From Candidatus Krumholzibacteriota bacterium (GTDB lineage Bacteria; Krumholzibacteriota; Krumholzibacteriia; Krumholzibacteriales; Krumholzibacteriaceae), in assembly GCA_041309605.1 (NCBI GenBank), contig JBFYZH010000061.1, positions 7,122 to 71,121 of the forward strand: DNA of 64,000 nt, given 5' to 3'. The translations under genes and the position numbers were made by a program. Under the pieces are notes generated by a model. The model saw nothing but the letters and a program-made list of their open reading frames with translations. It was not told where the DNA came from and ran no database searches. Each line of letters opens with the position of its first letter. Position 1 is the stretch's first letter. Below, piece by piece: positions 1 to 31,584 of this stretch.

Positions 1-579
1 GTTTTCCGCCACGGTCAGCATCACGTTCATCTCCCGCGAGAAATGGTTGTACATGAGAATCGCCGGCACCGCTATGATTATGCCCGCCGCGGTGGTGAGA
101 AGCGCCTCGGACACTCCGGCGGCCACGACCGATGGCGCCGAGGAACCGGCGACAGCCATGTTGGAGAAGGCGCGCATGATCCCCGTTATCGTGCCCAGCA
201 GCCCGATAAGCGGCGCGATGGCGGCCATCGTTCCGAGCACGCCGAGGTTTTTTTCGAAAAGCATCTTCTGATTGCTCAGGGTTATCAGCATTTTTTCCTC
301 GGTCGCTTCGCTCATCGGATCGTCGCTTTCGAAGATCTGGACGGCCACGGGACCCATGGGATGCCTTGTCGATTCGCAGGCGCGGGTGGCTTCCTTGATG
401 TCCTCGTCGCGGATCTTCTTCATCGACACGGCGAGGGTCTCGTCGGGATTCCCCTTCCTCCTGTAGAAATAGAGCGTTCTCTCTATGGCGATACCGAACG
501 TCACGACGCTGCAGATTATCAGCACGATAAAAACGGGGCTTTCGAACACGGAATCCATCCAGTTGATCGTTTCAATCAT
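1..579 (-). CDS. MotA/TolQ/ExbB proton channel family protein (3' end runs off the window)
   Basis: Not in the ORF track (no stop in window). Manual minus-strand translation from ATG at 579 (GGAG RBS upstream): MIETINWMDSVFESPVFIVLIICSVVTFGIAIER...LGVLGTMAAIAPLIGLLGTITGIMRAF...GVSEALLTTAAGIIIAVPA, the ExbB/TolQ TM2-TM3 signature. Confidence 0.92.
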   Translation of the reverse strand, partial: MIETINWMDSVFESPVFIVLIICSVVTFGIAIERTLYFYRRKGNPDETLAVSMKKIRDEDIKEATRACESTRHPMGPVAVQIFESDDPMSEATEEKMLITLSNQKMLFEKNLGVLGTMAAIAPLIGLLGTITGIMRAFSNMAVAGSSAPSVVAAGVSEALLTTAAGIIIAVPAILMYNHFSREMNVMLTVAEN

Positions 580-614
580 TTTCAATCTCCTTGTTCCTTC
601 CACCGGCGATCCGT

Positions 615-3600
615 TTATTCCAGAGCGCTCTCTATCTGGGACGCCCTCTCCCTGGCCGCGAGGGCCAGTTCGGCGTCCCTGGAATTGGTTATAAGATCCC
701 TGTAGGCCGAAAGGGCCTTCCTGAAATCGCCCGTCCTTTCGTGCAGGGCCGCGGCTCTGGCGACGGCGGACAGGCGGAATGGATCCGATTTCTCCCCGGC
801 TTCCATCGCGGCCCGGTAAGACTCGACCGCTTCCGAAGTCAAACCGAGGGTTTCACGGCAGAAACCCAGGCGGTAGTTCAGTTCCACGAACGCTCCGTCA
901 GGGATCGAATCGTACCTCACCAGCGCCGCGTATTCCTCCGCCGCCTTTTCGAACATTTTCTCCTCCTCGAATATTTCTCCGAGGAGCTTCGTGACGTCGA
1001 ACATCCTTTTGTCATCGTCGATCCCGCCGGCGCGGTATTTCCTGAGCACATCGGCAGCCTCGCCGGGCATCCGCAGTATCCTGTAGCTCATCCCCAGGTT
1101 GTATACCGCGGCGAACCTCGTTTCGCCGTCGGTCCCGGTTTCCAGCACGCGTTTGAAATCCCCGGCGGCAAGCGTGTACTCTCCGTTGTCGAAACGAATC
1201 TTGCCCAGCCTGAAAAGGGCGGCGGATTCCAGTGCGCTTCCGGGGAAACAATCCGGGAACTTCTCCCATGCCTCCCTGGACTCGGCGTCAAGGCCGCCGA
1301 GACCGAACGACTCGGCCATAAGAAACCATGCCCTGTCGGCGGCCGACCACGCGGGGAAAAGGTTCACCAGGCGCCGGAACCCGGCCGCCGCCCGGGCGTA
1401 ATCCTTTTCCTCGTAAAAACGCATCGCTATCTCGAACTGGGCATCGGGGGCCAGCGGGCTCGAGACATGTTCCTCGACCAGCTCGGCCAGCCTGGCCGTG
1501 TTGTTTTCCGAAAGTCCCAGCCTGTAAAGCGACTGGGCCACTCCCGCTTCCGCCTCCGATGCGATTTCAGTGCCGGCGAATCTGAGCGCGGTTTCCCTGA
1601 ACTTTCCGAGCGCGGCCTCGTCAAATCCCTCGTTGTAATCGCATCTTGCCAGCGAAAGAAGGCCCTCCGGCTCCAGAACCGTTCCCGCGCCATGTTCTAC
1701 CAGGGCGCCGTAGCAGCGGCGCGCGTCGTCGAAATGCCCCGTGTGGAAATACAGGTCCGCGGCCCTGCGCCAGGCGAGCAGCGCCAGGGAATCGGCGGGA
1801 TCGATGGCGACTATCCTCTCCCACTCGTCGACGGCGTCCCCCGGCCTGCCGAGCCTCAAATCGCAGAGGCCGGCCTGGTAAAGCGCCGTGCGGTATTCGC
1901 GGTGACCTGGAAATTCACGTATGAACGAGTTATAGCCGGCAAGCGCCTTTTCGTAATCCTTACTGTTGAACGAGGCGTGCGCGATGGTGAGAGCCGCGTC
2001 GCTCATGCCGGCCATGTCCCCAAGCGCCTGATATCTCGCCAGCATCCTCTCCTCGGTCTCTATTGCGAGATCCTGCCGTCCCTGTCTCGCATACGTCCAG
2101 GCAAGAAGCCGGTTCGCCTTTATCCCGGCCGGGTGGTCGGGAAATTCCCTGAAAAGCATTTTCAGCGTTTCCTGGGCTTCCGGATAGCGCGACCGGGCGG
2201 CCAGGGCGTCGGCGTCCATCAGAAGCGCGTAAGCCCTCCACAGCGACCGGCTCGGCGGCATTTTTCGGAGCACCAGATGGGGTGCGCCGGAAAGCTGTCC
2301 CATGTCTCCAGCCTGGTGGTAAGCATATTCAAGGAGACACAGCGCGGCTTCGGCCAATTCCTGGTGCCCCGTCGATTCGAATACGAAAATCCCCCCGTTC
2401 TCGCTGCCGCCGTACCTGTCCAGAACGAGCTGGAAGTACGGGGCCGCCGCTAGGGGCAGTCCCTGTTCCAGCAGTCCTACACCGGCAAGGTATACGGCCG
2501 CCGGGGCTTCCGGCGCATAGGGGTGTCCCGCCGCCACGGCCTGATATGAGCCGTTGGCCTCTACCTGCCTGCCCAGGGCGTCGAAGCACCGGGCGGTCCT
2601 GTAAAGAGCGCTGCCGGCGAGCATGTGATCGAAATATTCCGAAAGCAGCCTGTTGAATTCGACGATCGATTCCTCGTACCGTCCCTGCCGCCACATCATC
2701 TCACCCAGGGCGAACTGCGCCCTGGCCGCCGTGTCTTCCCCCCTGTACCGGGAGGCGATATCCCTCATCGATTCGATGCCGTCCTGCTCGCCGCCTGCGA
2801 GGAAAACGCATGAAGCGCCGAGAAATTCCGACTCGGCGCGTATATCCTTTCTGGAAGATCGACTCGCGGCCAGCGCGAACTCCCCGGCCGCCGAGCGGTA
2901 ATCGTCGGCGCTGCCGAGGAGATTTCCTTTTGCGAGGAAAGCGTACCCTCTCAGGCGCGAATCGGGATGCCTGTCGAGCATCTCCTGATAGACCACGGCG
3001 GCCCTGTACGAATCGCCCATTTTCTGACGGCACAGCGCTTCGAGAAACAGCCCGGCCTCAGAATCGGCGCATCGTGAAACATGCGAAATGGCTCCGTCAT
3101 AGTCCTTCCCGTGAAAAGCGATGACCCCCAGCGCCAGATCGACCCTCGGGTCGCCCGCCATCCATCCATGACACGAAACGAGATCCCGTATGGCCGATGC
3201 CGCCCCGGCATGTTCGCCCCTTCTCAGAGCGTTCCAGACCGACGCCAGGCGGGCTTCGGCGACGAGGGGACTTTCCGGATTATGTTTGAGCCACCGGGAC
3301 CATTCTTCTTTTGCCGTTTCGTCGCGCCCGGCCGCTTCGAGCGATTTAATCCTGTAAAAAAGAGCGTCGTCGCCCAAAGGTCCGTTTTTCGACTTTCCCG
3401 CCGAGCGACGGAATATTTCCGCGGCGGCGTCATAATCGCCCATGGCCGAAAGGATCTCCCCCTCGAGCATAAGCGCCGCTCCGATGGTTTCTTTCGGGAT
3501 GCCGCCCGTCACGATTGCTTCCAGACGGTCCAGCATGCCGTTTGAAGCAGCCCGAAGCCGATCGATTGAACCGCGTCTTGCCCCCTCGAATTCCATTCCT

Positions 3601-3773
3601 AAGAGACCGATACGAGAGACACCGGCCCCCTCTTCGCTCCCGGCGGTTTCTTCACCGGCGAGAGGTTCCGCGCTTCCCGCCGAGGCCGAGAATGCGATCG
3701 ATGCCATCATCATCAGGAATCCGGCCGTGAGCAGGGTGGCCGCCACCATTCTTCCGAGGTTTTTTTCTGACAT
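615..3773 (-). CDS. Large exported tetratricopeptide-repeat protein (BamD/CpoB-like repeats), 1052 aa
   Basis: N-terminal signal peptide; many helix-pair repeats such as YQEMLDRHPDSRLRGYAFLAKG, FNRLLSEYFDHMLAGSALYRTA, FRRLVNLFPAWSAADRAWFLMA. Confidence 0.88.
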   Translation of the reverse strand: MSEKNLGRMVAATLLTAGFLMMMASIAFSASAGSAEPLAGEETAGSEEGAGVSRIGLLGMEFEGARRGSIDRLRAASNGMLDRLEAIVTGGIPKETIGAALMLEGEILSAMGDYDAAAEIFRRSAGKSKNGPLGDDALFYRIKSLEAAGRDETAKEEWSRWLKHNPESPLVAEARLASVWNALRRGEHAGAASAIRDLVSCHGWMAGDPRVDLALGVIAFHGKDYDGAISHVSRCADSEAGLFLEALCRQKMGDSYRAAVVYQEMLDRHPDSRLRGYAFLAKGNLLGSADDYRSAAGEFALAASRSSRKDIRAESEFLGASCVFLAGGEQDGIESMRDIASRYRGEDTAARAQFALGEMMWRQGRYEESIVEFNRLLSEYFDHMLAGSALYRTARCFDALGRQVEANGSYQAVAAGHPYAPEAPAAVYLAGVGLLEQGLPLAAAPYFQLVLDRYGGSENGGIFVFESTGHQELAEAALCLLEYAYHQAGDMGQLSGAPHLVLRKMPPSRSLWRAYALLMDADALAARSRYPEAQETLKMLFREFPDHPAGIKANRLLAWTYARQGRQDLAIETEERMLARYQALGDMAGMSDAALTIAHASFNSKDYEKALAGYNSFIREFPGHREYRTALYQAGLCDLRLGRPGDAVDEWERIVAIDPADSLALLAWRRAADLYFHTGHFDDARRCYGALVEHGAGTVLEPEGLLSLARCDYNEGFDEAALGKFRETALRFAGTEIASEAEAGVAQSLYRLGLSENNTARLAELVEEHVSSPLAPDAQFEIAMRFYEEKDYARAAAGFRRLVNLFPAWSAADRAWFLMAESFGLGGLDAESREAWEKFPDCFPGSALESAALFRLGKIRFDNGEYTLAAGDFKRVLETGTDGETRFAAVYNLGMSYRILRMPGEAADVLRKYRAGGIDDDKRMFDVTKLLGEIFEEEKMFEKAAEEYAALVRYDSIPDGAFVELNYRLGFCRETLGLTSEAVESYRAAMEAGEKSDPFRLSAVARAAALHERTGDFRKALSAYRDLITNSRDAELALAARERASQIESALE

Positions 3774-3785
3774 CGCCCTTTCCTT

Positions 3786-5057
3786 TTATCTCTTGTCGAC
3801 TACGACCGGCACCTTGACCTGGGAGATGCTCGTATCGATCTCCACCGTCCCGGTTTCGCCCGTGACGACCCTGCCGTCCGAATCCGTCACCGTCAGCCTG
3901 TAAACATAGATGCCGTCGGGCAGCGAAACGCCGGTGTCGGCTTTCCCGTCCCACATCACATGCGCCGGCGGCGTACCCTTTCCTCCGAATCTTCTCACTT
4001 CGTGTTCATACTTGTCGGTGAGCGCCAGGCTCCAGTCGCGCACCTCTTTCCTGGTCTTCGAACTGAGATGGAACTTGGTGGCGGACCTGCCTCCAAACGG
4101 GGAAAACACGGATGGATCGGCGCTGGACCTGGCGAAGAACCCGCCGAAGGCGTAACCCAGGCTGAACCTGTGCGTGATTCCGAGTTCGTGATTTTCCATG
4201 CCGTAATCGAGTTTTATTTCGCGCGGCAGCCTGCAACGCAGGCCGCCGGAAGGCGACATGGCGTCGAGCCCGAGCCGAAGCGCCATGTTCTGATTGACCC
4301 AGTATTCGGTTCCGCCGTGGAAACTCGTCTCGACGCCGGAAAGGTGCACGATCTCCGCCGTCACCAGGGCTCTGCCTGAAAGCACCTGCAGCGCGAACCC
4401 TCCCCTGAACTCGACGGGGTAGCTTTCGTCCGTGTCCCTGAGTGAAAGGGAGGGTCCGCCTATATTCAGGAGTGAAGCACCGAGACTCAATCGTGGCGCC
4501 ACCTTGAACAACATCCCGAGATCGAGCCCGAGCCCGGTATCGTTATATTCGTCCAGAGACTGCCTTACGACCTTCACGTTGGCTCCCGCGGATATGAAGG
4601 GATGGAAATCGTGCGAAGCCGACAGGACGAAGGCCATGTCGCTTTCATTGAAACTTCCCGTGACATCGTTGAACTCGTTGGTCCTTTCAAAGGTCCCTGA
4701 GCTCATGGTGAGGATCGAAAGCCCGAGTGAAGGAAACTTCCGTCCGGGGACCGCGAAACTGAAACTGTTAACGCTGGTTCCCTCGAAAAGCCGCGCCGTC
4801 TCAACGTAGACCTCGTTGCTGAAGAGCTGCGTGAGCCCGGCCGGGTTCCATATCATTCCTATGGGTTCGTCGGCGAGAGCCGTGAAGGAGCCTCCGAGTC
4901 CCAGGCTCCTCGCGCTCCTGTAATGAGTCAGCCAGTCCCCGGCGATCCCCCCGTTTTCCTCGCTCCCCAGGGCCGCGTCCCACCCCGCCGGCAGCAGCCA
5001 CGCGGAGAAAAGGGCCGCCAGCAATATTGTTTTCCCGATCTTGTCTAAACGGTCCAT
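3786..5057 (-). CDS. PorV/PorQ-family outer-membrane beta-barrel with C-terminal FlgD-like Ig domain
   Basis: Start reassigned to ATG 5057 (MDRLDK, then signal peptide). SARSLGLGGSFTALADEPIGMIWNPAGL is a PorV/FadL-type N-terminus; alternating beta strands; tail VMWDGKADTGVSLPDGIYVYRLTVTD is FlgD-like. Confidence 0.8.
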   Translation of the reverse strand: MDRLDKIGKTILLAALFSAWLLPAGWDAALGSEENGGIAGDWLTHYRSARSLGLGGSFTALADEPIGMIWNPAGLTQLFSNEVYVETARLFEGTSVNSFSFAVPGRKFPSLGLSILTMSSGTFERTNEFNDVTGSFNESDMAFVLSASHDFHPFISAGANVKVVRQSLDEYNDTGLGLDLGMLFKVAPRLSLGASLLNIGGPSLSLRDTDESYPVEFRGGFALQVLSGRALVTAEIVHLSGVETSFHGGTEYWVNQNMALRLGLDAMSPSGGLRCRLPREIKLDYGMENHELGITHRFSLGYAFGGFFARSSADPSVFSPFGGRSATKFHLSSKTRKEVRDWSLALTDKYEHEVRRFGGKGTPPAHVMWDGKADTGVSLPDGIYVYRLTVTDSDGRVVTGETGTVEIDTSISQVKVPVVVDKR

Positions 5058-5113
5058 CGAAGGGTCCTCCCCGATTTTGGGTTCCGCGCAAGCGCCTCGG
5101 CGCCGGCCATATT

Positions 5114-8100
5114 TCATCTGACAACGCCGATTCTGCGGCGCATCGTATGTATCGTTTCACCCGAACGCACGGCTTCGACAAACAGGACATAACCGCCGCT
5201 CGAGACATGATCTCCGTTTCCATTTCTGCCGTCCCAGAGGACCTCGTTGAGCCCGGAGGCGCCGCCCGGCTCGCCCGCGGCGTACCTTCTGCTGAACACA
5301 AGCCCGCCGCTGAGCGTATAGAGCTTCATCGTCACGGAAGCGTCGTCGGAAAGCACGTAGGCGATGGTCGTGGAGCTTTCCCCCGGGTGGAACGGGTTCG
5401 GATAATTGGTGACGGATCCTCCGGCCGAGTTTGGATCGACGTGGGCGGTCTGAACGGTGAGATCGGCGTCGAGGCCGTTAGAGACGGCCCTTATGATCCC
5501 GATCTCCGGTTCGTAGGGGCTGGTGAAACGCGCCCGCGCGATGCCGTTTTCGCCGGTAAATTCATCCAGCGGGGCGATCGTGCCGGTGCCGTCCGTCAGC
5601 TCGAAGGTGACCGGCTGCCCGGGCACCCCGTTTCCAAACTCGTCAAATACGCCGGCGCTGACTGTCATGCTCCGGTTCCCGCCTATCCATGGGAGTTCGC
5701 TCTCCATTACGAGCTGCGACGGCGCGGCAGGTTCCACTACAATGATGTTGGTCATTCCGGGTTCGTTTCCCTCCTGGTCCCTTATGACGAACAATACGGA
5801 TTGGGACTTCGTATAGGTCTGCCTGATCGTCCGTTTACCCTGGAGCAGCTGGAACTGCGGGGCAAGCAGCTCCCCGTCCCCCGGCTCGCCGTTGTCGGCG
5901 TTAACCGCTTCGACGATGGCGAAGGAGTTGACCTCCTGCATGATCGCTCCGGCGTCGTTCGTCACCCTGACCGTCAGCGTGAACGGCTCGCCGGCCTGCA
6001 CCCTCTCGGGGGTCACTTCCGCCTCGAAATGGAATCCGCTGTTGATCGCCCGCACCTGGGAAGTAGCCGGAGCCATCAACGGATTGGAATTATTTTCCGC
6101 GGTGATCAGCTGATACCCGCCGGTGCAAAGCCTCAGGACCGGTTCGGCCAGACCGTCGTCCATCGCCATCCCGGGAGGAAGTTCGGCCAGCGGATCCGTG
6201 GTTGAAATCTCTATCAGGTCGTAGACCCCTCCGACGTGGTTCCACCATTCGTCGGTCGCGACCACCCCTAGCGTGAACGAATATCTGATTGACTGGTCGG
6301 TGGGTTCGCCCGCCTTGCCCGTTTCCGACCCTGGAACCGGTTCCTCTCCCGGCGCCAGCATTATTATCCGGGCGTACGGCCCGGGGAGAACGTCGAATTC
6401 ACTTGAAGTGCAGCCGGGGATCTCATCGCTGCCGGGATCCGCAAGGCTCAGGAAGTGGGTTCCCGCCCTGAAAAAGGTCATAGGGACGACGGCCACTCCG
6501 CCGGAAAGGATTATTCCGGAAGGCACCTCGGCGTAGGCGTCGGTCGAAAGCAGTTCGACGCCGTCATTTATTTCCGGCACGACGTTCCACCAGCTGTCGA
6601 CGGCCCTCACAAGGGTCTCGAACATCGCGCCGGCCGTCTGGAACCGGGGGGTCCCCTCGATTCCCGGCGCGACCCCTCCAGTCGGCGACTGCCCGGGAAG
6701 AATCACCTGAAGTCCGGCGAAAGCTCCCGGCAGGACTTTCACGGCGTTGCTCGTGCCGATATTGGGCGGCATCGCGTAGTCGATGCAGGAGAAGGACACC
6801 TCTTCGCCGGCGCAAAAGAATGTCATCTCGCCGGACCACGATCCGCCGGCAAACCTGATCGATTCCGGCGTTATCGTGCCGGGACCGGTGACGGCCGCCA
6901 GCATCGCGTGTCCGTTATATCCGGCGATTATTTCTCCGTTATTATCGACGACCTTTATCGAAACCGGCGCCGGTTCGCCCGCCGTGACGGGACCCGTCAC
7001 AGGTTCTATCACGAATGTCGGATCGTCTGAGATCACCGGGATACCATCGCTCGTCATGCCGAGGATATCGCAATTCGAATCGTCCGTGACCGTGAGCGTC
7101 CGCGTCCCGGCGGCGGCGAAAATGACGGGGAAACGAACGTGCCCGCCGGCAAGAATTCCCGTGAATGGCACGGGAAAATCAAGATCGTTCGATACAACGC
7201 GCACGGCGTCCGAAGCCTGAACCATGTTCCAGTACTCGTCGGTCGCGTATATGTCGGCCTGGAAACCGCGGCCCGCAAGCTGCGTGGCGGGGGACCCGTT
7301 CAGGCCGCCGAGTGTCGACGGCGCCCTGGTCTGCCCCGGCACGACGATCTGCAGTCTCGCAAAATCCCCGGGCAGAACGGTAAAACAACCGCTCATGCCG
7401 GCAACTGCCCTGTCGGCCCCGCATACGCCCGATATCTTGACGCTTCCGCCGGTGCACTCCGTTCTGCTCTCGTCGGCGAGGTAAACCGCCACCGGCCCGC
7501 TCCACTCTCCCCCGGAAAGCGATATCGAGGCCGGTTGTATCCTTCCCTCGCCGAGACTGGTTATCTGCCGAAGTTCGACGGGCCCCGAGAAACCTGTGTC
7601 CGTATTTCCGTTGTGATCGACCGCCATGACTTCCAGGTAAAATGGAACACCGGCCTTCTGCCCGGCGTCTATATGCGAAAACTCGAGCCTCTCGGCGCTT
7701 CCCGCCCCTCCCGTGACCTCCACCGCCGAAGATGTCGCGGTATAATGCTCCCCGTCCGTGAGGTCCGTCGCGGTGACGGTGAACGATCCCGTCGAATTCA
7801 GGATCACCGTCATCGTCACCACCCCGCCTATCGTCGTCTGTGCCCCGGGCAGCACCGCGGCCCCGTCGGTCGATGTGAGCCTGATGACATGCCTGACGGA
7901 TGTGACGGTCTGCCAGGCCGGGTCGCACGCCCTGACGACGACCTGGAACGGAACGCCGGCGACCTGTGCAAGAGGATACCCGGCGATACCCGACTCCGTT
8001 CCCGGCGCGGCCGATTCTCCCGGTAGAAGAACCTGCAGTCTGGAATAAGGGCAGCAAAACGCTTCCGGAGCCTCGCCGGCCGCCGAAAAAATTGCCGCAA

Positions 8101-8155
8101 TGGTTATTATCGCGAGATTCCTGATCCTTGCCGGTATCCTTTTCACGATATCCAC
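5114..8155 (-). CDS. Large secreted/surface protein with Ig-like repeats and C-terminal FlgD/T9SS-type sorting domain, 1013 aa
   Basis: Signal peptide; four repeats starting RLQVLLPGE/RLQIVVPGQ/GLQVILPGQ/RIIMLAPGE; Big_1-like segment (VFDEFGNGVPGQPVTF); C-terminal NYPNPFHP...VLWDGRNGNG...SSGGY...RRIGVVR. Confidence 0.85.
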   Translation of the reverse strand: MDIVKRIPARIRNLAIITIAAIFSAAGEAPEAFCCPYSRLQVLLPGESAAPGTESGIAGYPLAQVAGVPFQVVVRACDPAWQTVTSVRHVIRLTSTDGAAVLPGAQTTIGGVVTMTVILNSTGSFTVTATDLTDGEHYTATSSAVEVTGGAGSAERLEFSHIDAGQKAGVPFYLEVMAVDHNGNTDTGFSGPVELRQITSLGEGRIQPASISLSGGEWSGPVAVYLADESRTECTGGSVKISGVCGADRAVAGMSGCFTVLPGDFARLQIVVPGQTRAPSTLGGLNGSPATQLAGRGFQADIYATDEYWNMVQASDAVRVVSNDLDFPVPFTGILAGGHVRFPVIFAAAGTRTLTVTDDSNCDILGMTSDGIPVISDDPTFVIEPVTGPVTAGEPAPVSIKVVDNNGEIIAGYNGHAMLAAVTGPGTITPESIRFAGGSWSGEMTFFCAGEEVSFSCIDYAMPPNIGTSNAVKVLPGAFAGLQVILPGQSPTGGVAPGIEGTPRFQTAGAMFETLVRAVDSWWNVVPEINDGVELLSTDAYAEVPSGIILSGGVAVVPMTFFRAGTHFLSLADPGSDEIPGCTSSEFDVLPGPYARIIMLAPGEEPVPGSETGKAGEPTDQSIRYSFTLGVVATDEWWNHVGGVYDLIEISTTDPLAELPPGMAMDDGLAEPVLRLCTGGYQLITAENNSNPLMAPATSQVRAINSGFHFEAEVTPERVQAGEPFTLTVRVTNDAGAIMQEVNSFAIVEAVNADNGEPGDGELLAPQFQLLQGKRTIRQTYTKSQSVLFVIRDQEGNEPGMTNIIVVEPAAPSQLVMESELPWIGGNRSMTVSAGVFDEFGNGVPGQPVTFELTDGTGTIAPLDEFTGENGIARARFTSPYEPEIGIIRAVSNGLDADLTVQTAHVDPNSAGGSVTNYPNPFHPGESSTTIAYVLSDDASVTMKLYTLSGGLVFSRRYAAGEPGGASGLNEVLWDGRNGNGDHVSSGGYVLFVEAVRSGETIHTMRRRIGVVR

Positions 8156-8251
8156 CTTTTCTTTTCGTTAATTTTAATCGTTCTACTGCCGATAACCGTG
8201 TGCCCGGATCACGTCACGGGCGGCGATAGCCTTAATTCAATCGTTCGGACG

Positions 8252-8266
8252 GCAAGACACATGCCA
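8252..8266 (-). promoter_or_regulatory. Putative sigma-54 (-24/-12) promoter of the surface protein-PorV-TPR-ExbB operon
   Basis: Minus strand TGGCATGTGTCTTGC fits TGGCAYR-N4-TTGC with exact GG/GC spacing, about 100 nt upstream of ATG 8155. Confidence 0.7.
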
Positions 8267-8394
8267 CCGGTGTCCGCCCGCCGGGCAATCCGCGGGAACC
8301 GCATATAACATGAAAATCAATGCGCTTTTGGAATTAAAGGCCGCATCCGGAAAATGGCGGCAGAGGAAGTAAAGACGACCCGACACGGGAACCC

Positions 8395-8415
8395 TTTTCC
8401 CCATGACAGGGAAAA
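8395..8415. promoter_or_regulatory. Inverted repeat, candidate upstream activator site
   Basis: TTTTCCC-catgaca-GGGAAAA perfect 7-7-7 palindrome about 130 bp upstream of the sigma-54 element. Confidence 0.35.
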
Positions 8416-8675
8416 TTTTTCGGTGCCGGAATTTCGGCGTTTAAAAAAAGGCCAGCTTTTCCGTCCCCGGCCTCATCCCGTAGCCCGGTTCGCGGAAAAG
8501 CTGACCAGCCCCGTTTACGTCCCTTGACCCCGCCGATGCGCGGGATCCCAGGAACTCTCTTCGAAATCACAGTCGGAAACGGCGCCTTGACGGTTTCAAC
8601 AAACCGGGCGGCCAGTTTAAATTATTTTCGGGGAAAAAGCGGCCGCCGTGCGCCGCATCGCTCGAACAGGGCCGT

Positions 8676-9338
8676 TCACTTCTCCAGCCAGCCGTCCCTG
8701 AGCCTTATTATCCTGTCGCTATAGGAAGCGTTCTTTTCGGAGTGCGTCGCCTGGATTATTGTCGTGCCCTCCGAATTGAGTTTCTTGAAGAGCTGCATGA
8801 TCTCGTCGCCCTGCTCGGAGTGAAGATTCCCCGTCGGTTCGTCGGCCAGGATGAGTTTCGGTCCGGCGATGATCGCCCTGGCCACACCGACCAGCTGCTG
8901 CTGGCCCCCTGAAAGCTGGTTCGGAAAGAGGTCCTTTTTCCCGACGATCTGGAACCTGTCGAGAATATCGCAGACCATGCCCTTGCGTTCGTCCCCCTTG
9001 ATCTTCTTGTAGAGAAGGGGGGTTTCGAGATTCTCGTATACCGTAAGTTCGTCGATAAGGTGAAAGCTCTGGAAGACGTAGCCGAAGTACTGCTTGTAGA
9101 GCGCCGAGCGTTTCCTGTCGTTGAGCCTGTGCACCTTCTCGTCGAAGAAAAGGTACTCCCCTTCAGTCTGCGAATCGAGCATCCCGATGATGTTCAGGAG
9201 GGTAGTCTTGCCGGCGCCGGACGGCCCCATCACGGTGATGAACTCCCCTTCGGCTATATCGAGATCGATGTTGCGCAGGACGTACGTCTTGACGACTCCC
9301 GTGTCGTAGTACTTCGTTATGTTTCTGAGCTTGATCAT
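8676..9338 (-). CDS. ABC transporter ATP-binding protein (MacB/LolD family)
   Basis: Walker A GPSGAGKT, signature LSGGQQQ, Walker [12 protein letters not shown]-loop ATHS. Confidence 0.95.
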
Positions 9339-9398
9339 CTCACGGCTCCGTTCGATTCGGGTGGACCGGCGATACCCTGATTACACCCGTCACTTATA

Positions 9399-9501
9399 TC
9401 ATTCGTTCCTGATCGCGTCCACCGGATTCGCCCCGGCCACCCTGACGGCCTGAAAACCGCGTGAAATTCCTTAAAGCTATCTTGAAATAGTTCCTTATCA
9501 T
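9399..9501 (-). pseudogene. Internally deleted ABC permease (MacB/FtsX-like) remnant
   Basis: ATG 9501 reads MIRNYFKIALRNFT (typical permease N-terminus); after one extra base the sequence reads GFQAVRVAGANPVDAIRNE* (typical permease C-terminus), TGA ending at 9399; 42+1+60 = 103 nt. Confidence 0.85.
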
Positions 9502-9532
9502 GGCGCCTTCCCTTCTTCCATCCGGCGATGCG

Positions 9533-10219
9533 TCAGATCATCGGCTTGCCCTTGACGTCGGTGACGACGCTTCCATCGAAAAGGTGGATGGTCCGGGAAC
9601 CGTACTCGGCGTATGTCGGCGAATGGGTGACCATCACGATCGTCGTGCCTTCCTCGTTGAGCTGGACCATCGTATTCATCACTTCCTCGCCGTGCGCCGA
9701 ATCGAGATTTCCGGTCGGCTCGTCCGCGAGAATCAGTTTGGGCCTTGTGATGACGGCACGAGCAACGGCAACTCTCTGCTGCTGGCCACCGGAAAGCTGC
9801 TGGGGAAAATGATTCTGCCGGGGCATAAGGTTGAAACGTTCGAGAGCCTCTTCGACCCTTTCCTTTCTCTGGGAGCCGGGAACGTTCTGGTACAGCAGCG
9901 GAAGTTCCACGTTCTCGTGTATCGTAAGCTCGTCTATCAGGTTGAAACTCTGGAAGACGAATCCTATGTTGTTCTTTCTCAGGTTGGATCTCTGTCTCTC
10001 CGAATACTTCGACACCTCCTCGCCAAGCAGGAAGTACTGCCCGCCGGTGGGATTGTCGAGAAGGCCGAGTATATTGAGAAGCGTCGACTTGCCGCATCCC
10101 GAAGGTCCCATGATGGATACGAACTCGCCCTCCTTTATTTCTATATTGACGCTGTTGAGAGCCGTGGTCTCCACCTCTTCGGTCCTGAACATCTTGACCA
10201 GTTCTTTCGTCCGTATCAT
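9533..10219 (-). CDS. ABC transporter ATP-binding protein (MacB/LolD family)
   Basis: Start reassigned to ATG 10219 (AGGAG RBS; MIRTKELVKMFRTEEVETTAL); [27 protein letters not shown] motifs. Confidence 0.95.
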   Translation of the reverse strand: MIRTKELVKMFRTEEVETTALNSVNIEIKEGEFVSIMGPSGCGKSTLLNILGLLDNPTGGQYFLLGEEVSKYSERQRSNLRKNNIGFVFQSFNLIDELTIHENVELPLLYQNVPGSQRKERVEEALERFNLMPRQNHFPQQLSGGQQQRVAVARAVITRPKLILADEPTGNLDSAHGEEVMNTMVQLNEEGTTIVMVTHSPTYAEYGSRTIHLFDGSVVTDVKGKPMI

Positions 10220-12993: not shown

Positions 12994-14379
12994 ATGAATA
13001 CAATGTCCGCAAAATACGGCAAATTACTTATAATCGACGATAACGAAGACCTGCTATTCGCCGCCAGACTCTTTCTCAAACAGCATTTCGCCCTTGTACA
13101 GACCGAAACCTCGCCGGAAAAGATCCCCACCCTTCTGGCAAAGGAAAAATTCGACGTCATCCTTCTCGACATGAACTTCACCGAGGACGTCACGAGCGGA
13201 CATGAGGGATTTTTCTGGCTGAACCGCATCCTGGACATCGACCCGTCATCCGTGGTCATCCTGATCACTGCTTACGCCGATTACGATATGGCCGTTCGCG
13301 CCATCAAGGAAGGCGCCGCCGATTTTATCGTGAAACCCTGGCAGAATGAAAAGCTCCTCGCGACCGTATCGTCGGCGATGGCGCTGAGCCGCACACAGAA
13401 CGAAGTGAGCGATCTGCGGGAAACTCAGAAAAGACTTATAGACGATCTCGATCAGCCTTTCCACGATTTTATCGGAAAATCGGAGTCGATAAGGCACGTG
13501 TTCGTTCTTATAGACAAGGTCGCAGGCACCGATGCGAACATCCTTATAACAGGCGCGAACGGCACGGGGAAGGAACTCGTCGCCAGGGCGATTCACCGGA
13601 AATCGGATCGCTCCGGCAAGCCTTTCGTTAGGGTGGACATGGGCGCTCTCACCGGCACCCTCTTCGAAAGCGAACTCTTCGGACACGTGAAAGGCGCCTT
13701 TACCGACGCGAAGGAGGACCGCCCGGGACGCTTCGAGATAGCTTCGGGGGGAACGCTCTTTCTCGACGAAATCGGCAATCTCCCTCTCGACCTGCAGGCG
13801 AAGATCCTCACCGCGCTTCAGAATCGCCAGGTGATAAGGGTCGGGTCGAACAAGGTCCGCGAGATCGATATACGGCTGATATGCGCCACGAATATCTCCC
13901 TGCCGGATATGGTCCGCGCGGGGACATTCAGGCAGGATCTGCTGTACAGGATAAACACGGTCGAGATCAACATCCCGCCTCTGAAAAACCGGGTCGACGA
14001 CATTGAACCGCTTGCCGGGCATTTCCTCGGAACGTACGGCAAGAAATACCGCAAGGATGCAGTCCGTATCAGCAACGCCGCCCTTGAAAAACTAAAGAGG
14101 TACGACTGGCCTGGAAACGTGCGCGAGCTTCAGCATTCCATCGAAAGGGCGGTGATAATGTCCGGCGGTAAAATCCTTCAACCGGAGGATTTTCTTCTCC
14201 CCCGCGCCGGGGAAGGCGAAAAGGAATTCCCCCTGGACGATCTCAATCTCGAAGAGATGGAGAAGGTCGTCATCCGCAAGGCGCTGGGCAGATTCGGCGG
14301 CAACATCAGCCTCGCAGCGAGACATCTCGGACTGAGCCGCGCGGCTCTATACCGCAGGCTGGAGCGATATGGCCTATAG
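12994..14379 (+). CDS. Sigma-54-dependent response regulator (NtrC/AtoC family)
   Basis: Receiver domain (IIDDN, LLDMNF, IVKPW), AAA+ [23 protein letters not shown] (GAFTGA-like loop), [15 protein letters not shown], Fis-type HTH. Confidence 0.96.
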
Positions 14380-15715
14380 GCGGTTCAGAAGTCTTTGCCT
14401 TGTCAGAATCATATTTCTCGCGGCGACAATATTCCTCTTTCTTTACCTGGCTATCGAAAAAGCGCTTTACGCCACGATTATTGTCGGCGGCACCGCCATA
14501 GTCATACAGATATTCTCCCTGCTGAGATTCGTCGATAAGACGAACAGGGATTTCACCCGTTTTCTCACGTCCATCAAGTACTCTGATTTTTCGCAGAATT
14601 TCGTAAGCGGGATGGCGGGCCGATCGTTCGACGAACTCAACGAATCCTTCGAATCGGTGATGAAACGGTTCAGGGAAATCAGCCTCGAAAAGGAGGAGAG
14701 CCACCGCTACCTGCAGACCCTGGTGCAGCATATAGGGGTGGGAATAATCGCTTTCGGCAGGGACGGCGAGGTCGACCTCATTAACAACGCCGCAAAAAGG
14801 CTTTTAAGCATCACGCATCTTAAGAATATCGGGACCCTCGATTCGATCAGTCCCGCGTTGCTTGAAAAGATCAGGACGATAAAACCCGGGCAGAGAGATC
14901 TTGCCAACGTGATCGTCGCGGAGGAAAAACTCCAGATATCCCTTTATTCGACCGAACTGCGGCAGCGCAACAGAATCATCACGCTGGTGTCGCTTCAGAA
15001 CATCAGCATGGAACTCAACGAGAAGGAGATGGACGCATGGCAGAACCTGATCCGCGTCCTTACACACGAGATCAAGAACTCCCTTGCTCCCATCGGTTCC
15101 CTGGCGTCGAGCGTCGAAGGATTTCTTCTGCCGCCGGACCGCCGGCCGGGCCTGATCGCTCCATGCGACGAAAACGATATACGGGACGCTCTGCAGACAA
15201 TACAGAAGCGAAGCCACGGCCTCCTGCAGTTCGTCGACACCTACCGCGACCTCACGCACATACCGAGACCTCAATACACCACCTTCAGGGTTTCGGAACT
15301 CCTCGGCAGTCTCGAGAAATTCGTCCATTCCCAGGTCGGCGACAGGGAGATCGACTATTCCGTCTCGATCGAGCCGGAAGGTCTCGAACTCAACGCCGAT
15401 CGGCAACTCATCGAGCAGGTCCTGATCAATCTGGTTCTGAACGCCGTTCAGGCGACCGCCGGAACCGAAAAAGCCGCAATCAGGGTGACGGCCATGATAG
15501 ACGAAAAAAGCAGGGCCGTGATAAAGGTCTCCGACAACGGTCCCGGAATAGTGGAGGACGCTCTCGAAAAGGTGTTCATTCCCTTCTACAGCACAAAAAA
15601 GGACGGTTCGGGAATAGGCCTGAGCCTCTCACGCCAGATCATGCGCCTGCATCGCGGTGACCTCACGGCGACCTCCAGGCCCGGTGTCGAAACGGTCTTC
15701 CGGATGAGATTCTAG
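14369..15715 (+). CDS. Sensor histidine kinase (NtrY-like, PAS-containing)
   Basis: Two N-terminal TMs; H-box VLTHEIKNSLAPI; N box LINLVLNA; DNGPGI, FIPFYSTKKDGSGIGLSL; overlaps the regulator by 11 nt. Confidence 0.95.
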   Translation: MAYRRFRSLCLVRIIFLAATIFLFLYLAIEKALYATIIVGGTAIVIQIFSLLRFVDKTNRDFTRFLTSIKYSDFSQNFVSGMAGRSFDELNESFESVMKRFREISLEKEESHRYLQTLVQHIGVGIIAFGRDGEVDLINNAAKRLLSITHLKNIGTLDSISPALLEKIRTIKPGQRDLANVIVAEEKLQISLYSTELRQRNRIITLVSLQNISMELNEKEMDAWQNLIRVLTHEIKNSLAPIGSLASSVEGFLLPPDRRPGLIAPCDENDIRDALQTIQKRSHGLLQFVDTYRDLTHIPRPQYTTFRVSELLGSLEKFVHSQVGDREIDYSVSIEPEGLELNADRQLIEQVLINLVLNAVQATAGTEKAAIRVTAMIDEKSRAVIKVSDNGPGIVEDALEKVFIPFYSTKKDGSGIGLSLSRQIMRLHRGDLTATSRPGVETVFRMRF

Positions 15716-15743: not shown

Positions 15744-18008
15744 CTACAGCACCCACGCGTAACCGAACTTGACGAAGAACGTCCGGTCGGTCTGCGTGAG
15801 CTCCACTCCCTGGAATCCGAAGTAGTTGTCGGAATAACCCAGGTAGAGAACCGTCTGAGGATTGATCTTGTAGGAAAAGAGAAGCTGGCTGAACAGTTTT
15901 TTCGTCCGTGGATCGACCTCGTCAAGATACAGCCCCGCGTCGCGCTCGTAATATACATACTGCATGTTCGCCCTGACGAAGGTTCTCCCGTTGAACTGGT
16001 AGATCAGCCGCATATTGCCGATGTTCGCGGAATAGAGAAGGCCCTCCTCCACCTCCAGACGTTCCCAGGTATGATCGAAGTCCAGCGAAAGATGCCTTCC
16101 CAGCCTGTACTCGATCCCCGGGTTGAACGAAAGCACGGTCGCCTGGCGGGTGTTCGCGTAATCGATCAGATCTCCGAAGGTATGGTTGATGAAAAACTTC
16201 ATAGCTGCGCCCGGACGCGCGCCGGCGGAAAGATGGTAGTGCCGGTAATTGAACCGCTCCTCCCCGTAGTCCACCTTCGCGTAAAAGTGAGTGACGAAAT
16301 TCACCTCCGACTGCATGGGTCCCGAGTAATCGACCCACAGGTTGCCAAGTTCCACCAGTTGCCTGCCTTCCGGATCTTCATCCAGTTCGTAGGCGCCCCC
16401 GACATCGATGTGCGTAAACCATTTTCCCGCTTCGGCGTTCCAATTCCTTTCCAGTCCCGTCTCGTAATGCCTGGCGCCGGTCTTGGGCACGAAACCGAGG
16501 TCGGCGCGGAACTTTTCGCCGTAGTCGTAGAAAAATGCGAACGCCTCCAGCTTTTCGGTCTCGTGCATGTATATCACCTCGCCGGCGGCCCCGTCGAAAC
16601 GCCCTGCCGGCTGTCCGAATCCCGCGACCGAGGAATCGGGATAATCCGTCCGCGATCCGAGCAACTGGAATGTGATCCGGTCCGTTTTAGTCAGCTTAAG
16701 GTCTCCGTCGAATCCCGCGACGCGGTTAAAGTAATCCTTCCCCTCGCGGTCCGTCGCCAGGATCCCGATGTTGGAGGACTCGAATATGTCCCTCCTGTAC
16801 CGCAGCACCGTGCCGGTGCTGCGTTCGCCGATGGAAGTCGACGCGGATCCCTGATTTCCCGGGAAAAGCAGGTTCGTGATCTCGTCTCGGACGGTATAGT
16901 AACCGACGGCATTCGGGCCCTCCTTGCCGGTCAGCTTTATCCCCCATCTGGGATCGGCCAGCGTCCGGGAATAGGCCGCGTTTATATTCGTTCCGAACAG
17001 CTCGGATCCCTCCATGAAGAAGGGGCGCCGTTCGGGGTAATAGATGGCGAATGTGTTGTTGATATCGAGCTCCACCGCGTCCGATTCGACCTGTGAAAAA
17101 TCGGGATTGACCGTTCCCTGCAGGGTAAGGTTCGGCGTGAACCCCCACCTGACGGTCAGCCCCGGGTCGTACCGCCTGTCCCTCTCGCGGAACTTTCCCC
17201 CGGTGAAATTTTCCCGTTCCTCCGAATAGAGGGCCGAGAACGTCGGATCCAGCTCGATATTGCGCCCCGGCGTGGCTCCGGCGAACCCGCTTATCTCCTC
17301 GGCCTGGCAGAGATAGCAGTTGTTGCTGCGATCCCGCGGGAAAAGGCCGATCCGGTGTTCCGCGCTCCTCGGGTAATTGCGCACCGCGTCGAAATTCCAG
17401 ACCTGCTCCCCGTCGGTGCGCTGGAACCTCATCGAACTGAATGGCACGGCGATCTCCACGACGTAACCCCATTCGGTTATCCTTCCCGCGGATTCCCATA
17501 TCGCGTCATAGCTGTCCGTCTCGCATTCCGCGCATTCAATCAGGTCGCCCTGAATCCCCAGCGGATTGACGAAAAACTCGAACATCCGCCGTTCGTCGTT
17601 GAACGAGTCGATCACGAGGGCCACCCAGTCGTCGTTGTACATCGCGTCCCTGTCGCACAGTCTCGCCCTTATCTTCGAAGGATCCGGATCCCAGGCTCTG
17701 AATGCGGCGTAAAAGTGCGTTTCGCTGTACATCACCAGCACCTCGGTTTTGACCGGCGGCGGCGCGTTCTCTCCGGGCTGGACCTCGTATTCCAGGGCCA
17801 TGCCGAGGGCCCGGTCCCAGCAGGGTTCGTCCAGCCGGCCGTCAACCGAAATCGCCTCCGCCACGATGGGAACGGAGTGCGGCGCGCCCGTGCCCTCGGC
17901 CGAAGCGGCGTCGGATGACGCACAGAAAGCTGTGAAAATCAGCGCCGGCTGCAATATCAGGGAAATCGAAAACAGGGTCGGAAGGCGAAAGGCGCGTGTT
18001 TTTCTCAC
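15744..18008 (-). CDS. CBM9-like sugar-binding domain plus DUF5916-type outer-membrane barrel
   Basis: Signal peptide; ISVDGRLDEPCW, FYAAFRAWDPDP..IRA, FFVNPLGIQGD, GYVVEIAVPFSSMRF; TVNPDFSQVESD...YPERRPFFMEG; ends FVKFGYAWVL. Confidence 0.8.
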   Translation of the reverse strand: MRKTRAFRLPTLFSISLILQPALIFTAFCASSDAASAEGTGAPHSVPIVAEAISVDGRLDEPCWDRALGMALEYEVQPGENAPPPVKTEVLVMYSETHFYAAFRAWDPDPSKIRARLCDRDAMYNDDWVALVIDSFNDERRMFEFFVNPLGIQGDLIECAECETDSYDAIWESAGRITEWGYVVEIAVPFSSMRFQRTDGEQVWNFDAVRNYPRSAEHRIGLFPRDRSNNCYLCQAEEISGFAGATPGRNIELDPTFSALYSEERENFTGGKFRERDRRYDPGLTVRWGFTPNLTLQGTVNPDFSQVESDAVELDINNTFAIYYPERRPFFMEGSELFGTNINAAYSRTLADPRWGIKLTGKEGPNAVGYYTVRDEITNLLFPGNQGSASTSIGERSTGTVLRYRRDIFESSNIGILATDREGKDYFNRVAGFDGDLKLTKTDRITFQLLGSRTDYPDSSVAGFGQPAGRFDGAAGEVIYMHETEKLEAFAFFYDYGEKFRADLGFVPKTGARHYETGLERNWNAEAGKWFTHIDVGGAYELDEDPEGRQLVELGNLWVDYSGPMQSEVNFVTHFYAKVDYGEERFNYRHYHLSAGARPGAAMKFFINHTFGDLIDYANTRQATVLSFNPGIEYRLGRHLSLDFDHTWERLEVEEGLLYSANIGNMRLIYQFNGRTFVRANMQYVYYERDAGLYLDEVDPRTKKLFSQLLFSYKINPQTVLYLGYSDNYFGFQGVELTQTDRTFFVKFGYAWVL

Positions 18009-21020: not shown

Positions 21021-22706
<1,686 letters not shown>

Positions 22707-26122: not shown

Positions 26123-26185
26123 CTTTGAACCCTCCTTATTCCCAGTGAAATGAATTGTTTAAATAGAGAGCCGTTGACGGGTGAA

Positions 26186-26215
26186 ACTATAGAAATTGAA
26201 GGGGACGGGTGTCAA
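26186..26215 (-). promoter_or_regulatory. Putative sigma-70 promoter for the CsgG-OmpA gene
   Basis: Minus strand TTGACA-N18-TATAGT. Confidence 0.5.
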
Positions 26216-26240
26216 TACAATTGTGGAGAGCAAGTTCGCA

Positions 26241-27485
26241 TCAGCGCTTTATCGACCTGATCCGTACAAGAAGCTCTGACGCCGACTTGCCCGTCTCCTC
26301 GAATTTTGCCGCCCGCTCGAGGTGCCGCTCGGCATCGCCGATCCGTCCAAGTTCATACGCGCAATATCCCATCATGAGATCCGGACGCCCCCGGGTGCTG
26401 TCCATGTCGGCGCTTTTTTGATAGGCCGAGTATGCGCGTTCGAACGAGCGCTCCATGAGGTGCAGATCGCCGAGCAGGCTCCACAGGCGTGACGTGGGTT
26501 CATTTTCGATGGCCCTTTCCAGCGTCCCCAGCGCCGCGCCGAATTCGTATGAAGCGAGATATGCGGAGGCGAGCCTTTCGTAATCCTCGGTCCGCACGGT
26601 GTCACCGAAAGCCTGCTCGTAACACCGGCTCGCCCGGGCCGGAACTCCGACGGCCGTGAATAGATCCCCCAACGTTCGAGCCTCGTCGCGCGAAAGGGGC
26701 TTCAGATAGTCAGCGATCAGGAGCGCGGAGGCGGCGCCCCGGTAATCCTTCATGCTGGCGAAATACTGATACGCGAGACGCCAGGCGTCGGGATTCGAAT
26801 GATACTCGTCCACGAGACGTTCGACGGCTCTTACTCCTCTTTCCAGATCGTTCGCGTCGCCGCACGCGGCCAGATATGTGCGAAACCATTCCAGCCTCGG
26901 CTGCGATCCGGCGGCGGAAAGGAGCCTGTCGAGAATATCCAGCGCCCTGGCGGAATCCTTCGAAAGATAATACGCGGTCGCCGCGTAGTAGAGAAGATCC
27001 GGCGTCTTGTGTTCGTCGAGTTCGTACCCCCGCAGAAAAGCGCCGCTGGCTATATTGAAACTTCCCAGATTGAAGGCCGTCTCCCCGAGTTTCATCCACG
27101 CGGGAGCAAACAGCGAATCCAATTCGACGCATTTCATAAAATGATCGAGCGATTTTTCCGGCTCCCCCATTTGCGTGTAGCTCAGGGCGAGATAGTATCT
27201 TGCCAGATAATTGTCGTCTTGTTTATTCTTTGACAGGAATTCATAAAGAATATCCGCGGATTCGGCGTATTTTCCCTCGTCGCGTTTTTCCTGCGCCCTG
27301 AAAAGCGCCAGGCGCGCCTTGAGTGGAAGCGCCGAAATACGATCCGTGGATTGGGATGTTTCCCCATGTGCGGTATTCGTCGCGCCCCGGGGGGGGGCAA
27401 GCGCGAGCAGCGATGCAAACGCCGCCCATAGCAACGGCATCGCGCCGCGTGTCCGTTTCTTCCGATCCTGTCCTTTTTCGTCCAT
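26241..27485 (-). CDS. TPR protein, TtpD-like component of a TonB2-type cluster
   Basis: Probable start ATG 27485; hydrophobic signal-like stretch; multiple TPRs (LARYYLALSY, AWMKLGETAF, LWSLLGDLH); follows tonB. Confidence 0.82.
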   Translation of the reverse strand: MDEKGQDRKKRTRGAMPLLWAAFASLLALAPPRGATNTAHGETSQSTDRISALPLKARLALFRAQEKRDEGKYAESADILYEFLSKNKQDDNYLARYYLALSYTQMGEPEKSLDHFMKCVELDSLFAPAWMKLGETAFNLGSFNIASGAFLRGYELDEHKTPDLLYYAATAYYLSKDSARALDILDRLLSAAGSQPRLEWFRTYLAACGDANDLERGVRAVERLVDEYHSNPDAWRLAYQYFASMKDYRGAASALLIADYLKPLSRDEARTLGDLFTAVGVPARASRCYEQAFGDTVRTEDYERLASAYLASYEFGAALGTLERAIENEPTSRLWSLLGDLHLMERSFERAYSAYQKSADMDSTRGRPDLMMGYCAYELGRIGDAERHLERAAKFEETGKSASELLVRIRSIKR

Positions 27486-27578
27486 CTGTTCTTCCTTCCG
27501 GACCCGCGGTCGGTGTCCTGGGAGGCCGGGAAACCCGCCGTCCGGCAATCCGCGGGTTTGCGGATCTGCCGGCGGTTC

Positions 27579-28627: not shown

Positions 28628-28631
28628 GCCG

Positions 28632-31415: not shown

Positions 31416-31584
31416 TTTCGGTTCCTTTCGAGTTCGGCTGCCCGGCCCCGGCGTTGCATTCCGCGCCCGGCACCCACCCGTTCCCGCATAAAACGATGCC
31501 CGTACATATCGACGAAAAATATGCCCTGGGATTGTTACCATTTTATGAAGCAAGGGTGAGAATTCTGTGAGGTCGGAAAAGTTT

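Follow-up and report, generated by a model that had tools for sequence, protein, structure and literature searches.

A conserved eight-gene operon that may couple a TonB-type motor to a PorV-like barrel and a putative surface protein in several candidate phyla

We describe an operon of eight genes, A-B-C-D-E-F-G-H, that begins in a 64,000-nucleotide stretch of DNA from a Candidatus Krumholzibacteriota bacterium (GenBank assembly GCA_041309605.1, contig JBFYZH010000061.1, positions 7,122 to 71,121 of the forward strand). We call this whole stretch the window. The operon encodes the components of a TonB system together with a β-barrel of the PorV family, a large immunoglobulin (Ig)-repeat protein whose C-terminal domain (CTD) resembles those of type IX secretion systems (T9SS), a tetratricopeptide repeat (TPR) protein, and a secreted protein with an Ig domain of the FlgD type. 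We tentatively propose that the locus is a dedicated trans-envelope force-transducing machine of the Ton/Tol type, that it acts on a single pair of PorV-type barrel and surface protein, and that it is expressed as one sigma-54-dependent operon. We hold this as a serious possibility rather than as an expectation.

The genes are listed below from A to H. The last four lie beyond the window, on contig JBFYZG010000009.1 (assembly GCA_041309585.1; locus L001), which we found by an exact-protein look-up and which carries the continuation past the ExbB gene.

Gene A: 5114-8146, minus strand; 1010 amino acids, GTG start; Ig-repeat protein with a C-terminal domain like those of T9SS proteins
Gene B: 3786-5057, minus strand; 423 amino acids; PorV/PorQ-family barrel
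Gene C: 615-3773, minus strand; 1052 amino acids; TPR protein
Gene D: 1-579, minus strand; 216 amino acids in full, with the 3' end left of the window; ExbB/TolQ family
Gene E: L001 13900-14307, beyond the window; 135 amino acids; ExbD
Gene F: L001 14311-14751, beyond the window; 146 amino acids; second ExbD
Gene G: L001 14733-15653, beyond the window; 306 amino acids; TonB
Gene H: L001 15650-16702, beyond the window; 350 amino acids; FlgD_ig protein

A preliminary description of this DNA, made from the sequence alone, had reported four co-oriented genes, which it labeled as a CTD-tagged surface protein, a PorV-like barrel, a TPR scaffold, and an ExbB/TolQ motor. All four are present on the minus strand, the gaps between them are the ones that it gave (56 nt for A/B, 12 nt for B/C, and 35 nt for C/D, using the gene caller's starts), and domain scans of A, B, C, and D support its labels. 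It had also expected ExbD and TonB to the left of the window, and on L001 two ExbD genes and a TonB gene do follow the ExbB gene. The genes there are packed even more tightly: F and G overlap by 19 nt, and G and H overlap by 4 nt. At the other end of the operon, terminator-like hairpins (8639-8656 and 8450-8506) lie between A and an upstream ABC-transporter gene and probably insulate the operon from it. After H, there is a near-consensus sigma-70-like promoter (L001 16753-16781; TTTACA-17-TATAAT with a TG extension, 11 of 12 positions), so the next gene should be a separate unit. That gene (L001 16901-17461) encodes a secreted protein of 186 amino acids, which has no family match and is conserved in none of the related loci.

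The main evidence that these genes belong together is that their order is conserved across phyla, which had been suggested as a check on the preliminary description. A scan of species-representative genomes gave 78 loci. By their labels, 26 of these are from Eisenbacteria, 17 from Krumholzibacteriota, 7 from Latescibacterota, 2 from Zixibacteria, 2 from UBP1, and 1 from Fibrobacteraceae, and 17 are unnamed. The other 6 are labeled as members of unrelated phyla, probably through errors of binning or labeling. We then compared the nine L001 proteins to the six-frame open reading frames (ORFs) of all loci. The A-H order was colinear in 80/80 loci. All eight genes were found in 46 loci, which are 46 of the 48 with sufficient flanking sequence; contig ends cut 32 of the 34 incomplete loci. 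Of the other two, L055 has no A beside B-H, and L041 loses similarity after the first 300 amino acids of C; L041 (12300-21164) may be rearranged or lie on a chimeric contig. The module occurs once per locus and spans at least five candidate phyla (Krumholzibacteriota, Latescibacterota, Eisenbacteria, Zixibacteria, and UBP1). This synteny rules out a chance adjacency of the genes.

The gene order also persists at much greater divergence. A profile search with B over 1.84 billion representatives was dominated by giant proteins with 8-30 FlgD_ig repeats, and it also yielded remote full-length relatives of B, including P0406. The locus that encodes P0406 (L086) has the same eight genes, at 25-29% identity. 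Its counterpart of A has 2252 amino acids and aligns with A at 29% identity (probability 100), and its counterpart of C is 25% identical to C across the full length.

Within the main group of loci, the putative outer-membrane components are as conserved as the motor. Similarity between loci is about 0.9-1.1 bits per residue for A, B, and D (ExbB), so A is as conserved as the motor protein. We found over 480 homologs of A, of about 1000 amino acids and about 50% identical across phyla, and over 450 homologs of B, of about 420 amino acids and about 50% identity. The named homologs of B are annotated by NCBI as "PorV/PorQ family protein" and come from Krumholzibacteriota, Latescibacterota, and Eisenbacteria. 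C matches every related locus with 700-1100 bits. This parity of A and B with ExbB indicates that the two are co-evolving, fixed parts of the module.

B is a member of the PorV family by curated hidden Markov model (HMM), by PDB sequence search, and by fold. It has a signal peptide, a hatch with an invariant WNPA motif, a barrel (residues 81-304), and a C-terminal Ig domain of the FlgD type, which is a β-sandwich (residues 308-407). It exceeds the cutoff of the NCBIfam model PorV_fam (NF033709; 106.1 bits, cutoff 90) and falls short of the equivalog models for PorQ (88 bits, cutoff 220) and PorV2 (47 bits, cutoff 325). The best PDB sequence match of the B profile is PorV of the translocon complex of F. 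johnsoniae (6H3I chain F, E = 5e-6), and FadL is absent from the list of matches. An AlphaFold2 model of B (mean predicted local distance difference test, or pLDDT, of 85.6) has fourteen long strands across residues 81-304, which is the 14-strand fold common to FadL and PorV. Using Foldseek, the model is closest to PorV (6h3i_F; TMq 0.53, TMt 0.64, root-mean-square deviation 4.6 Å, 17% identity). FadL scores lower (TMq 0.48, TMt 0.55, root-mean-square deviation 8.2 Å), with E-values similar to those for PorV, and BamG is weaker than PorV (TMq 0.36-0.39). The preliminary description had allowed that the barrel might instead cluster with FadL-type lipid transporters; by sequence, B groups with PorV/PorQ and not with FadL, given the PorV_fam score, the 6H3I match, and the best TM-score.

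Because the number of strands is even and the Ig domain follows the last one, this domain of B should be periplasmic. Neither it nor the Ig domain of H begins with YPNPF, and both look like internal domains rather than secretion signals. We also note that the closest matches to the Ig domain of B are domains repeated 8-30 times in tandem within giant proteins (1000-4100 amino acids; P0300-P0449). The B profile has 25,646 library matches at E ≤ 1e-3, mostly via this domain.

A has a cleavable signal peptide with no lipobox, then about 800 amino acids of Ig-like modules, a Big_1 domain (residues 826-887), and a C-terminal domain that resembles FlgD_ig and T9SS type A CTDs (about residues 915-1010). 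The Ig-like region contains four copies of the pattern LPGE..PG..G..G.P..Q.AG..F.V.V.A.D..WN.V. Residues 1-825 have no match in Pfam, NCBIfam, or PDB sequences, and searches of PDB sequences with A alone or with its profile gave nothing significant. The CTD (NYPNPFHPGE...GGYVLFVEA...MRRRIGVVR) has the YPNPF and GGY motifs and the basic C-terminus. The models for PorU, PorZ, and M6i match this domain through their own CTD portions (E = 1e-5 to 6e-4), and by BLAST it is similar to the CTD of a TIGR04183-positive protein in the same window (E = 1e-5). Its match to Pfam's FlgD_ig is weak (25.4 bits, cutoff 27). No peptidase domain was found in A, and we rejected the idea of a PorU-like sortase for this reason. 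The preliminary description had cast A as the substrate of the system. Given about 50% identity over about 1000 amino acids across phyla, A looks like a fixed structural component and not a variable cargo.

In C, a signal peptide that lacks a lipobox is combined with TPR repeats of the YbgF/BamD/PorW type along the whole protein, and we read C as a periplasmic scaffold. It includes seven YbgF/CpoB-like stretches, stretches similar to BamD, and a partial match to PorW/SprE (80 bits, cutoff 250). The TIGR02795 score of 178 bits is a sum over the seven repeats and reflects a resemblance of repeat type rather than an equivalog. Judging from their domains and motifs, D-E-F-G are the components of a complete TonB system, with ExbB, ExbD with its Asp, and TonB with SxxxH and TonB_C. 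D matches MotA_ExbB (PF01618, E = 1.6e-30) and is equally close to ExbB (5SV0, 73 bits) and TolQ (70 bits). Both ExbD proteins (PF02472) retain the transmembrane aspartate (PLIDV and PVIDV). G has the SxxxH transmembrane motif (SVLIH) and a TonB_C domain, with only about 20 residues before the transmembrane segment.

H is secreted. Its model (pLDDT 72.5) has an Ig domain of the FlgD type (residues 135-237) and a small α/β domain (residues 275-349). Residues 1-130 are conserved and are modeled with low confidence, which suggests that they are disordered. FlgD_ig is the sole Pfam domain in 14 of 14 homologs of H, and H has no significant match among PDB sequences. A fold search with H found FlgD Ig domains, and its C-terminal domain weakly matched the peptidoglycan-binding domain of SiiA (probability 0.93, TMt 0.43); this match is too weak to call H a peptidoglycan binder. 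A flagellar role can be set aside, as there are no flagellar genes and the matches to FlgD_ig and FlcA are confined to the domain level.

The operon is preceded by a promoter element and a palindrome:

8252-8266, minus strand: sigma-54 type -24/-12 element TGGCATgtgtcTTGC (TGGCAT-N5-TTGC), about 95 nt upstream of the start of A
8395-8415, minus strand: perfect inverted repeat with 7-bp arms, TTTTCCC-N7-GGGAAAA, located 149 nt farther upstream than the -24 element

Both of these had been claimed in the preliminary description, and both were found. The -24/-12 element is the sole exact match to TGGCAY-N5-TTGC in the 64 kb, where 0.16 would be expected by chance, and it is conserved in relatives: related loci have a GGCAC-N5-TGC element 90-170 nt upstream of A. 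The element scores at least 17/19 in 35 of 60 loci, compared to none of 60 in a reverse-complement control. At a score of at least 16, the counts are 51 of 60 loci and 8 in the control. A conserved sigma-54 promoter implies that the operon is co-expressed under regulation. In L007, the closest relative, the identical palindrome stands equally far upstream, and the Eisenbacteria loci have a different palindrome, GGCTCGATCGAGCC, at about -145. So a palindrome lies about 145-150 nt upstream of the promoter element in two clades, with a clade-specific sequence, and the one at 8395-8415 is a candidate site for an upstream activator (an enhancer-binding protein). The window also encodes an NtrC-type sigma-54 activator (a response regulator) and a histidine kinase (12994-15715, plus strand), which are 5 kb upstream and divergent. 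We claim no link between this regulator (12994-14379) and the operon, as the pair was not seen beside the operon in the four relatives whose called genes we read (L003, L004, L006, and L086).

Could the operon itself be a secretion system? The preliminary description had proposed motor-driven secretion or surface display. We found no SprA/Sov and no GldK/L/M/N (PorK/L/M/N) among the eight operon genes or among 34 ORFs that were scanned against NCBIfam, namely 24 ORFs of the window (mostly the larger ones) and 10 on the L001 contig. With no translocon-like gene and no GldK/N-like gene in the operon or in the scanned ORFs of the window, the secretion part of that idea is not supported, and neither is A as its substrate. 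The conserved, linked module with a motor is supported.

The organism does probably have an ordinary T9SS, which could export A, because three large secreted proteins in the window have bona fide T9SS CTDs that pass the TIGR04183 cutoff (31643-33427, minus strand; 55880-58327, plus strand; and 58421-62290, minus strand). Two of the three also have β-propeller repeats.

We propose the following mechanism, all of which is conditional. A would be exported by the cell's general T9SS, after which its cognate barrel B would retain it at the surface by way of the CTD, in the way that PorU is held by PorV, PorZ by PorQ, and BamH by BamG. C, H, and the periplasmic Ig domain of B would bridge this outer-membrane complex to TonB. 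Proton flow through ExbB/ExbD would then cause TonB to pull on the bridge, and the resulting mechanical work on the B-A complex might move, extend, retain, or release A. If so, the module would be a motor-coupled holder of a surface protein and not itself a protein translocon.

Several observations weigh against this proposal. First, TIGR04183, which is the model for T9SS type A CTDs, does not match A at E ≤ 0.01. Because this model misses A, we infer its export by T9SS rather than read it from a family assignment. Second, no TonB box was recognized on B, C, or H. Third, a complete chromosome from Eisenbacteria (OY970342.1, locus L055) has B-H and no A within 9.8 kb upstream (1-9800). Finally, uniform and strong conservation of all the parts fits a housekeeping role in the envelope equally well.

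A bolder version of our proposal is that A-H is a self-contained, proton-driven actuator in which the motor acts via the TPR scaffold to move or tension a PorV-held Ig-repeat adhesin. We consider this unlikely. If it were true, several uncultured phyla from the FCB (Fibrobacteres-Chlorobi-Bacteroidetes) group would have a third independently assembled solution for motor-coupled adhesion or gliding, beside Agl-Glt in the myxobacteria and GldLM-SprB in Bacteroidota.

To put the operon in context, we compared it to known systems. It mixes features of the T9SS pairs, of TonB, of Tol-Pal with CpoB, and of the Agl-Glt core, and it lacks a defining feature of each. In the T9SS pairs PorU-PorV, PorZ-PorQ, and SprB-SprF, the gene for a large CTD protein likewise lies directly before the gene for a PorV-family barrel, and B adjoins the CTD-bearing gene A in 46 of the 48 loci with sufficient flank. 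Unlike those pairs, A has no peptidase or β-propeller domain, and A and B share an operon with a giant TPR protein and a TonB motor, with no SprA, GldK, GldL, GldM, or GldN gene at the locus. Also, PorV does not have the FlgD-type Ig domain that B has after its barrel. With the TonB-ExbB-ExbD system, the operon shares ExbB, the ExbD paralogs with their Asp, and a TonB with SxxxH and TonB_C. In contrast to that system, it has no TonB-dependent transporter or recognizable TonB box, and encodes a PorV-like barrel, a TPR protein, and FlgD-Ig proteins instead. Domain scans found no TonB-dependent receptor domain in A, B, C, or H.

The Agl-Glt machinery likewise combines one TolQ-like and two TolR-like proteins with a protein resembling TonB, large TPR proteins that are secreted, barrels in the outer membrane, and ultimately an adhesin at the surface. 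Its core complex (aglRQS, gltD, gltE, gltG, and gltC) has been described in bacteria that do not glide, one member of the Fibrobacteres among them, as a conserved cluster whose function is unknown (Luciano et al. 2011, PMC3169522). Our data do not suggest that the operon is orthologous to it. The GltE model gives 22 bits (cutoff 225), no other Glt model matches, and G has no FHA domain, whereas the TonB-like GltG has a cytoplasmic one. Also unlike Agl-Glt, the barrel is of the PorV family and the putative surface protein has a T9SS-like CTD.

Two other comparisons concern motors or barrels that serve surface proteins. SiiAB of Salmonella is an ExbBD/MotAB-like proton channel that serves the giant Ig-repeat adhesin SiiE, and our fold searches gave weak matches to the Ig domains of SiiE as well as to the peptidoglycan-binding domain of SiiA. 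In the β-barrel assembly machinery (BAM) complex of Bacteroidota, BamG is a FadL-family 14-strand barrel that holds the surface-exposed protein BamH (PMC12611786). In the FCB group, the holding of surface proteins by FadL/PorV-type barrels is an established theme, in line with our proposal. Unlike BamG-BamH and SiiAB-SiiE, the operon includes no BamA/BamD gene and no type I secretion system gene.

A cousin of this architecture is found on an unrelated contig (L089, 4840-11758). It encodes a protein of over 2100 amino acids, a TPR protein of 1053 amino acids (YfiO/TPR_6 type), a 1048-amino-acid protein with 8 FlgD_ig domains that ends in OmpA, ExbB, a protein of 184 amino acids, and a response regulator. 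This suggests a wider class of loci that join a giant TPR protein and FlgD-Ig proteins to ExbB.

The rival that fares best is that the operon encodes a Tol-Pal-like system for envelope integrity or cell division, which would tether or constrict the outer membrane; we think that this is improbable, if well worth weighing. D, E, F, and G would play the roles of TolQ/TolR/TolA, C would take the place of CpoB/YbgF in expanded form, B would serve as the anchor in the outer membrane, and A would be an accessory protein of the envelope. H would stand for TolB/Pal, with an N-terminal segment like a TolA box and a C-terminal domain that might bind peptidoglycan. The operon does resemble Tol-Pal with CpoB (YbgF) in having a TolQ/TolR/TolA-like trio beside YbgF-type TPR repeats (seven such stretches in C), D is as near to TolQ as to ExbB, and every part is highly conserved and found in one copy per locus. 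As in Tol-Pal, a periplasmic protein is encoded after the TolA/TonB gene: H lies at the position of tolB/pal, and its 130 N-terminal residues are conserved and modeled with low confidence. The SiiA-like fold match of its C-terminal domain would also fit, but this match is weak. The cousin locus, which joins a 1053-amino-acid TPR protein and ExbB to a protein with eight FlgD_ig domains and OmpA, fits as well. On the other hand, domain scans found no TolB β-propeller, PD40, or Pal/OmpA domain among the operon's proteins; Tol-Pal has both the TolB propeller and the Pal lipoprotein, and does not have the outer-membrane barrel and CTD protein that are added here. The TPR protein is about four times longer than in Tol-Pal and is encoded upstream of the motor, and G matches TonB_C. 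The sigma-54 promoter and the upstream palindrome point to conditional expression, and this alternative leaves a 1000-amino-acid protein with a secretion-type CTD unexplained.

Another possibility, to which we give rather less weight, is energized uptake. A would bind a ligand at the surface, B would be the channel, and ExbBD-TonB would provide the power, with C and H as adaptors, so that the module would be an analog of SusCD or of a TonB-dependent transporter that is built on another barrel. The FadL-family hatch of B (WNPA) and its 14-strand barrel are consistent with this, as are the full TonB system in the same operon and the strong conservation of A, which would be expected for the binder of a conserved ligand. 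Sigma-54 control is common for nutrient-responsive operons, so the promoter would fit too. But known FadL-type transport is passive lateral diffusion that does not involve TonB, and B is PorV/PorQ-like by sequence rather than FadL-like. Neither a plug domain nor a TonB box was recognized, and the loci that we read have no linked gene for catabolism or for an inner-membrane transporter.

Equally doubtful, in our view, is that the operon is two independent units that are co-transcribed: A/B would be an ordinary T9SS pair of cargo and anchor, and C-H would be a general TonB energizer for transporters. TonB loci of Bacteroidota typically have two ExbD genes and a linked TPR gene (exbB-exbD-exbD-tonB-TPR is a common arrangement in the FCB group), and C-H is similar in this respect. 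There are also two TonB-dependent transporters in the window, outside the operon, that a general energizer could serve. However, the B-C junction (12 nt here) and the gene order are invariant across phyla, including in the relative with 25% identity, which would be unexpected for an arbitrary fusion. Also, FlgD-type Ig domains link the two halves: they are found in B from the first half and in H from the second, and the CTD of A is weakly similar to FlgD_ig as well.

Furthermore, a second Ton-like cluster in the window could serve those transporters. This Ton/Tol-like cluster lies at 24347-31553 (minus strand), and the ORFs scanned there encode a 304-amino-acid protein with no assigned family, a MotA/ExbB protein (470 amino acids), a MotA/TolQ-like protein (211), TonB (209), a TPR protein (435), and an OmpA-like protein (591). 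Given this cluster and the two transporters, the motor of A-H is not the cell's only energizer, which argues that A-H has a dedicated role, as in our proposal.

We also note three other features of the window. A DUF5916/CBM9-like protein of 754 amino acids (15744-18008, minus strand) adjoins a TonB-dependent receptor (18192-20210, plus strand), and the two may form a pair for polysaccharide uptake. EttA is encoded at 21021-22706. A methyltransferase gene similar to the adenine methyltransferase PglX of the BREX (bacteriophage exclusion) system (40140-42656, plus strand) adjoins the stretch with the lowest GC content (42-44 kb, 0.49 compared to about 0.57), and this region may be a defense island.

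In the literature that we could search, on T9SS in Latescibacteria or Eisenbacteria, on secretion and TonB in Krumholzibacteriota, and on PorV with ExbB and TPR proteins, we found no description of this operon. A 2015 paper on Latescibacteria genomes mentions TonB/ExbBD only generically. In the source annotations, A and H are "hypothetical" or spuriously named, and B is a "PorV/PorQ family protein" only. The operon thus defines three uncharacterized protein families: the 800-amino-acid LPGE...WNPV repeat region of A, H, and the architecture of B, with its barrel plus Ig domain.

The outer membrane cannot generate energy, and to our knowledge, there are few known ways to deliver energy there (TonB, Tol-Pal, the GldLM motor of T9SS, Agl-Glt, and Mot-type stators). 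Here, a complete TonB motor is wired to a PorV-family barrel and its CTD-bearing partner, instead of to a plug-type transporter. If these parts do work together, then the known clients of Ton-type motors would expand, and PorV-like barrels would gain a role outside of the canonical T9SS. The Latescibacterota, Krumholzibacteriota, and Eisenbacteria would also gain a defined cell-surface machine.

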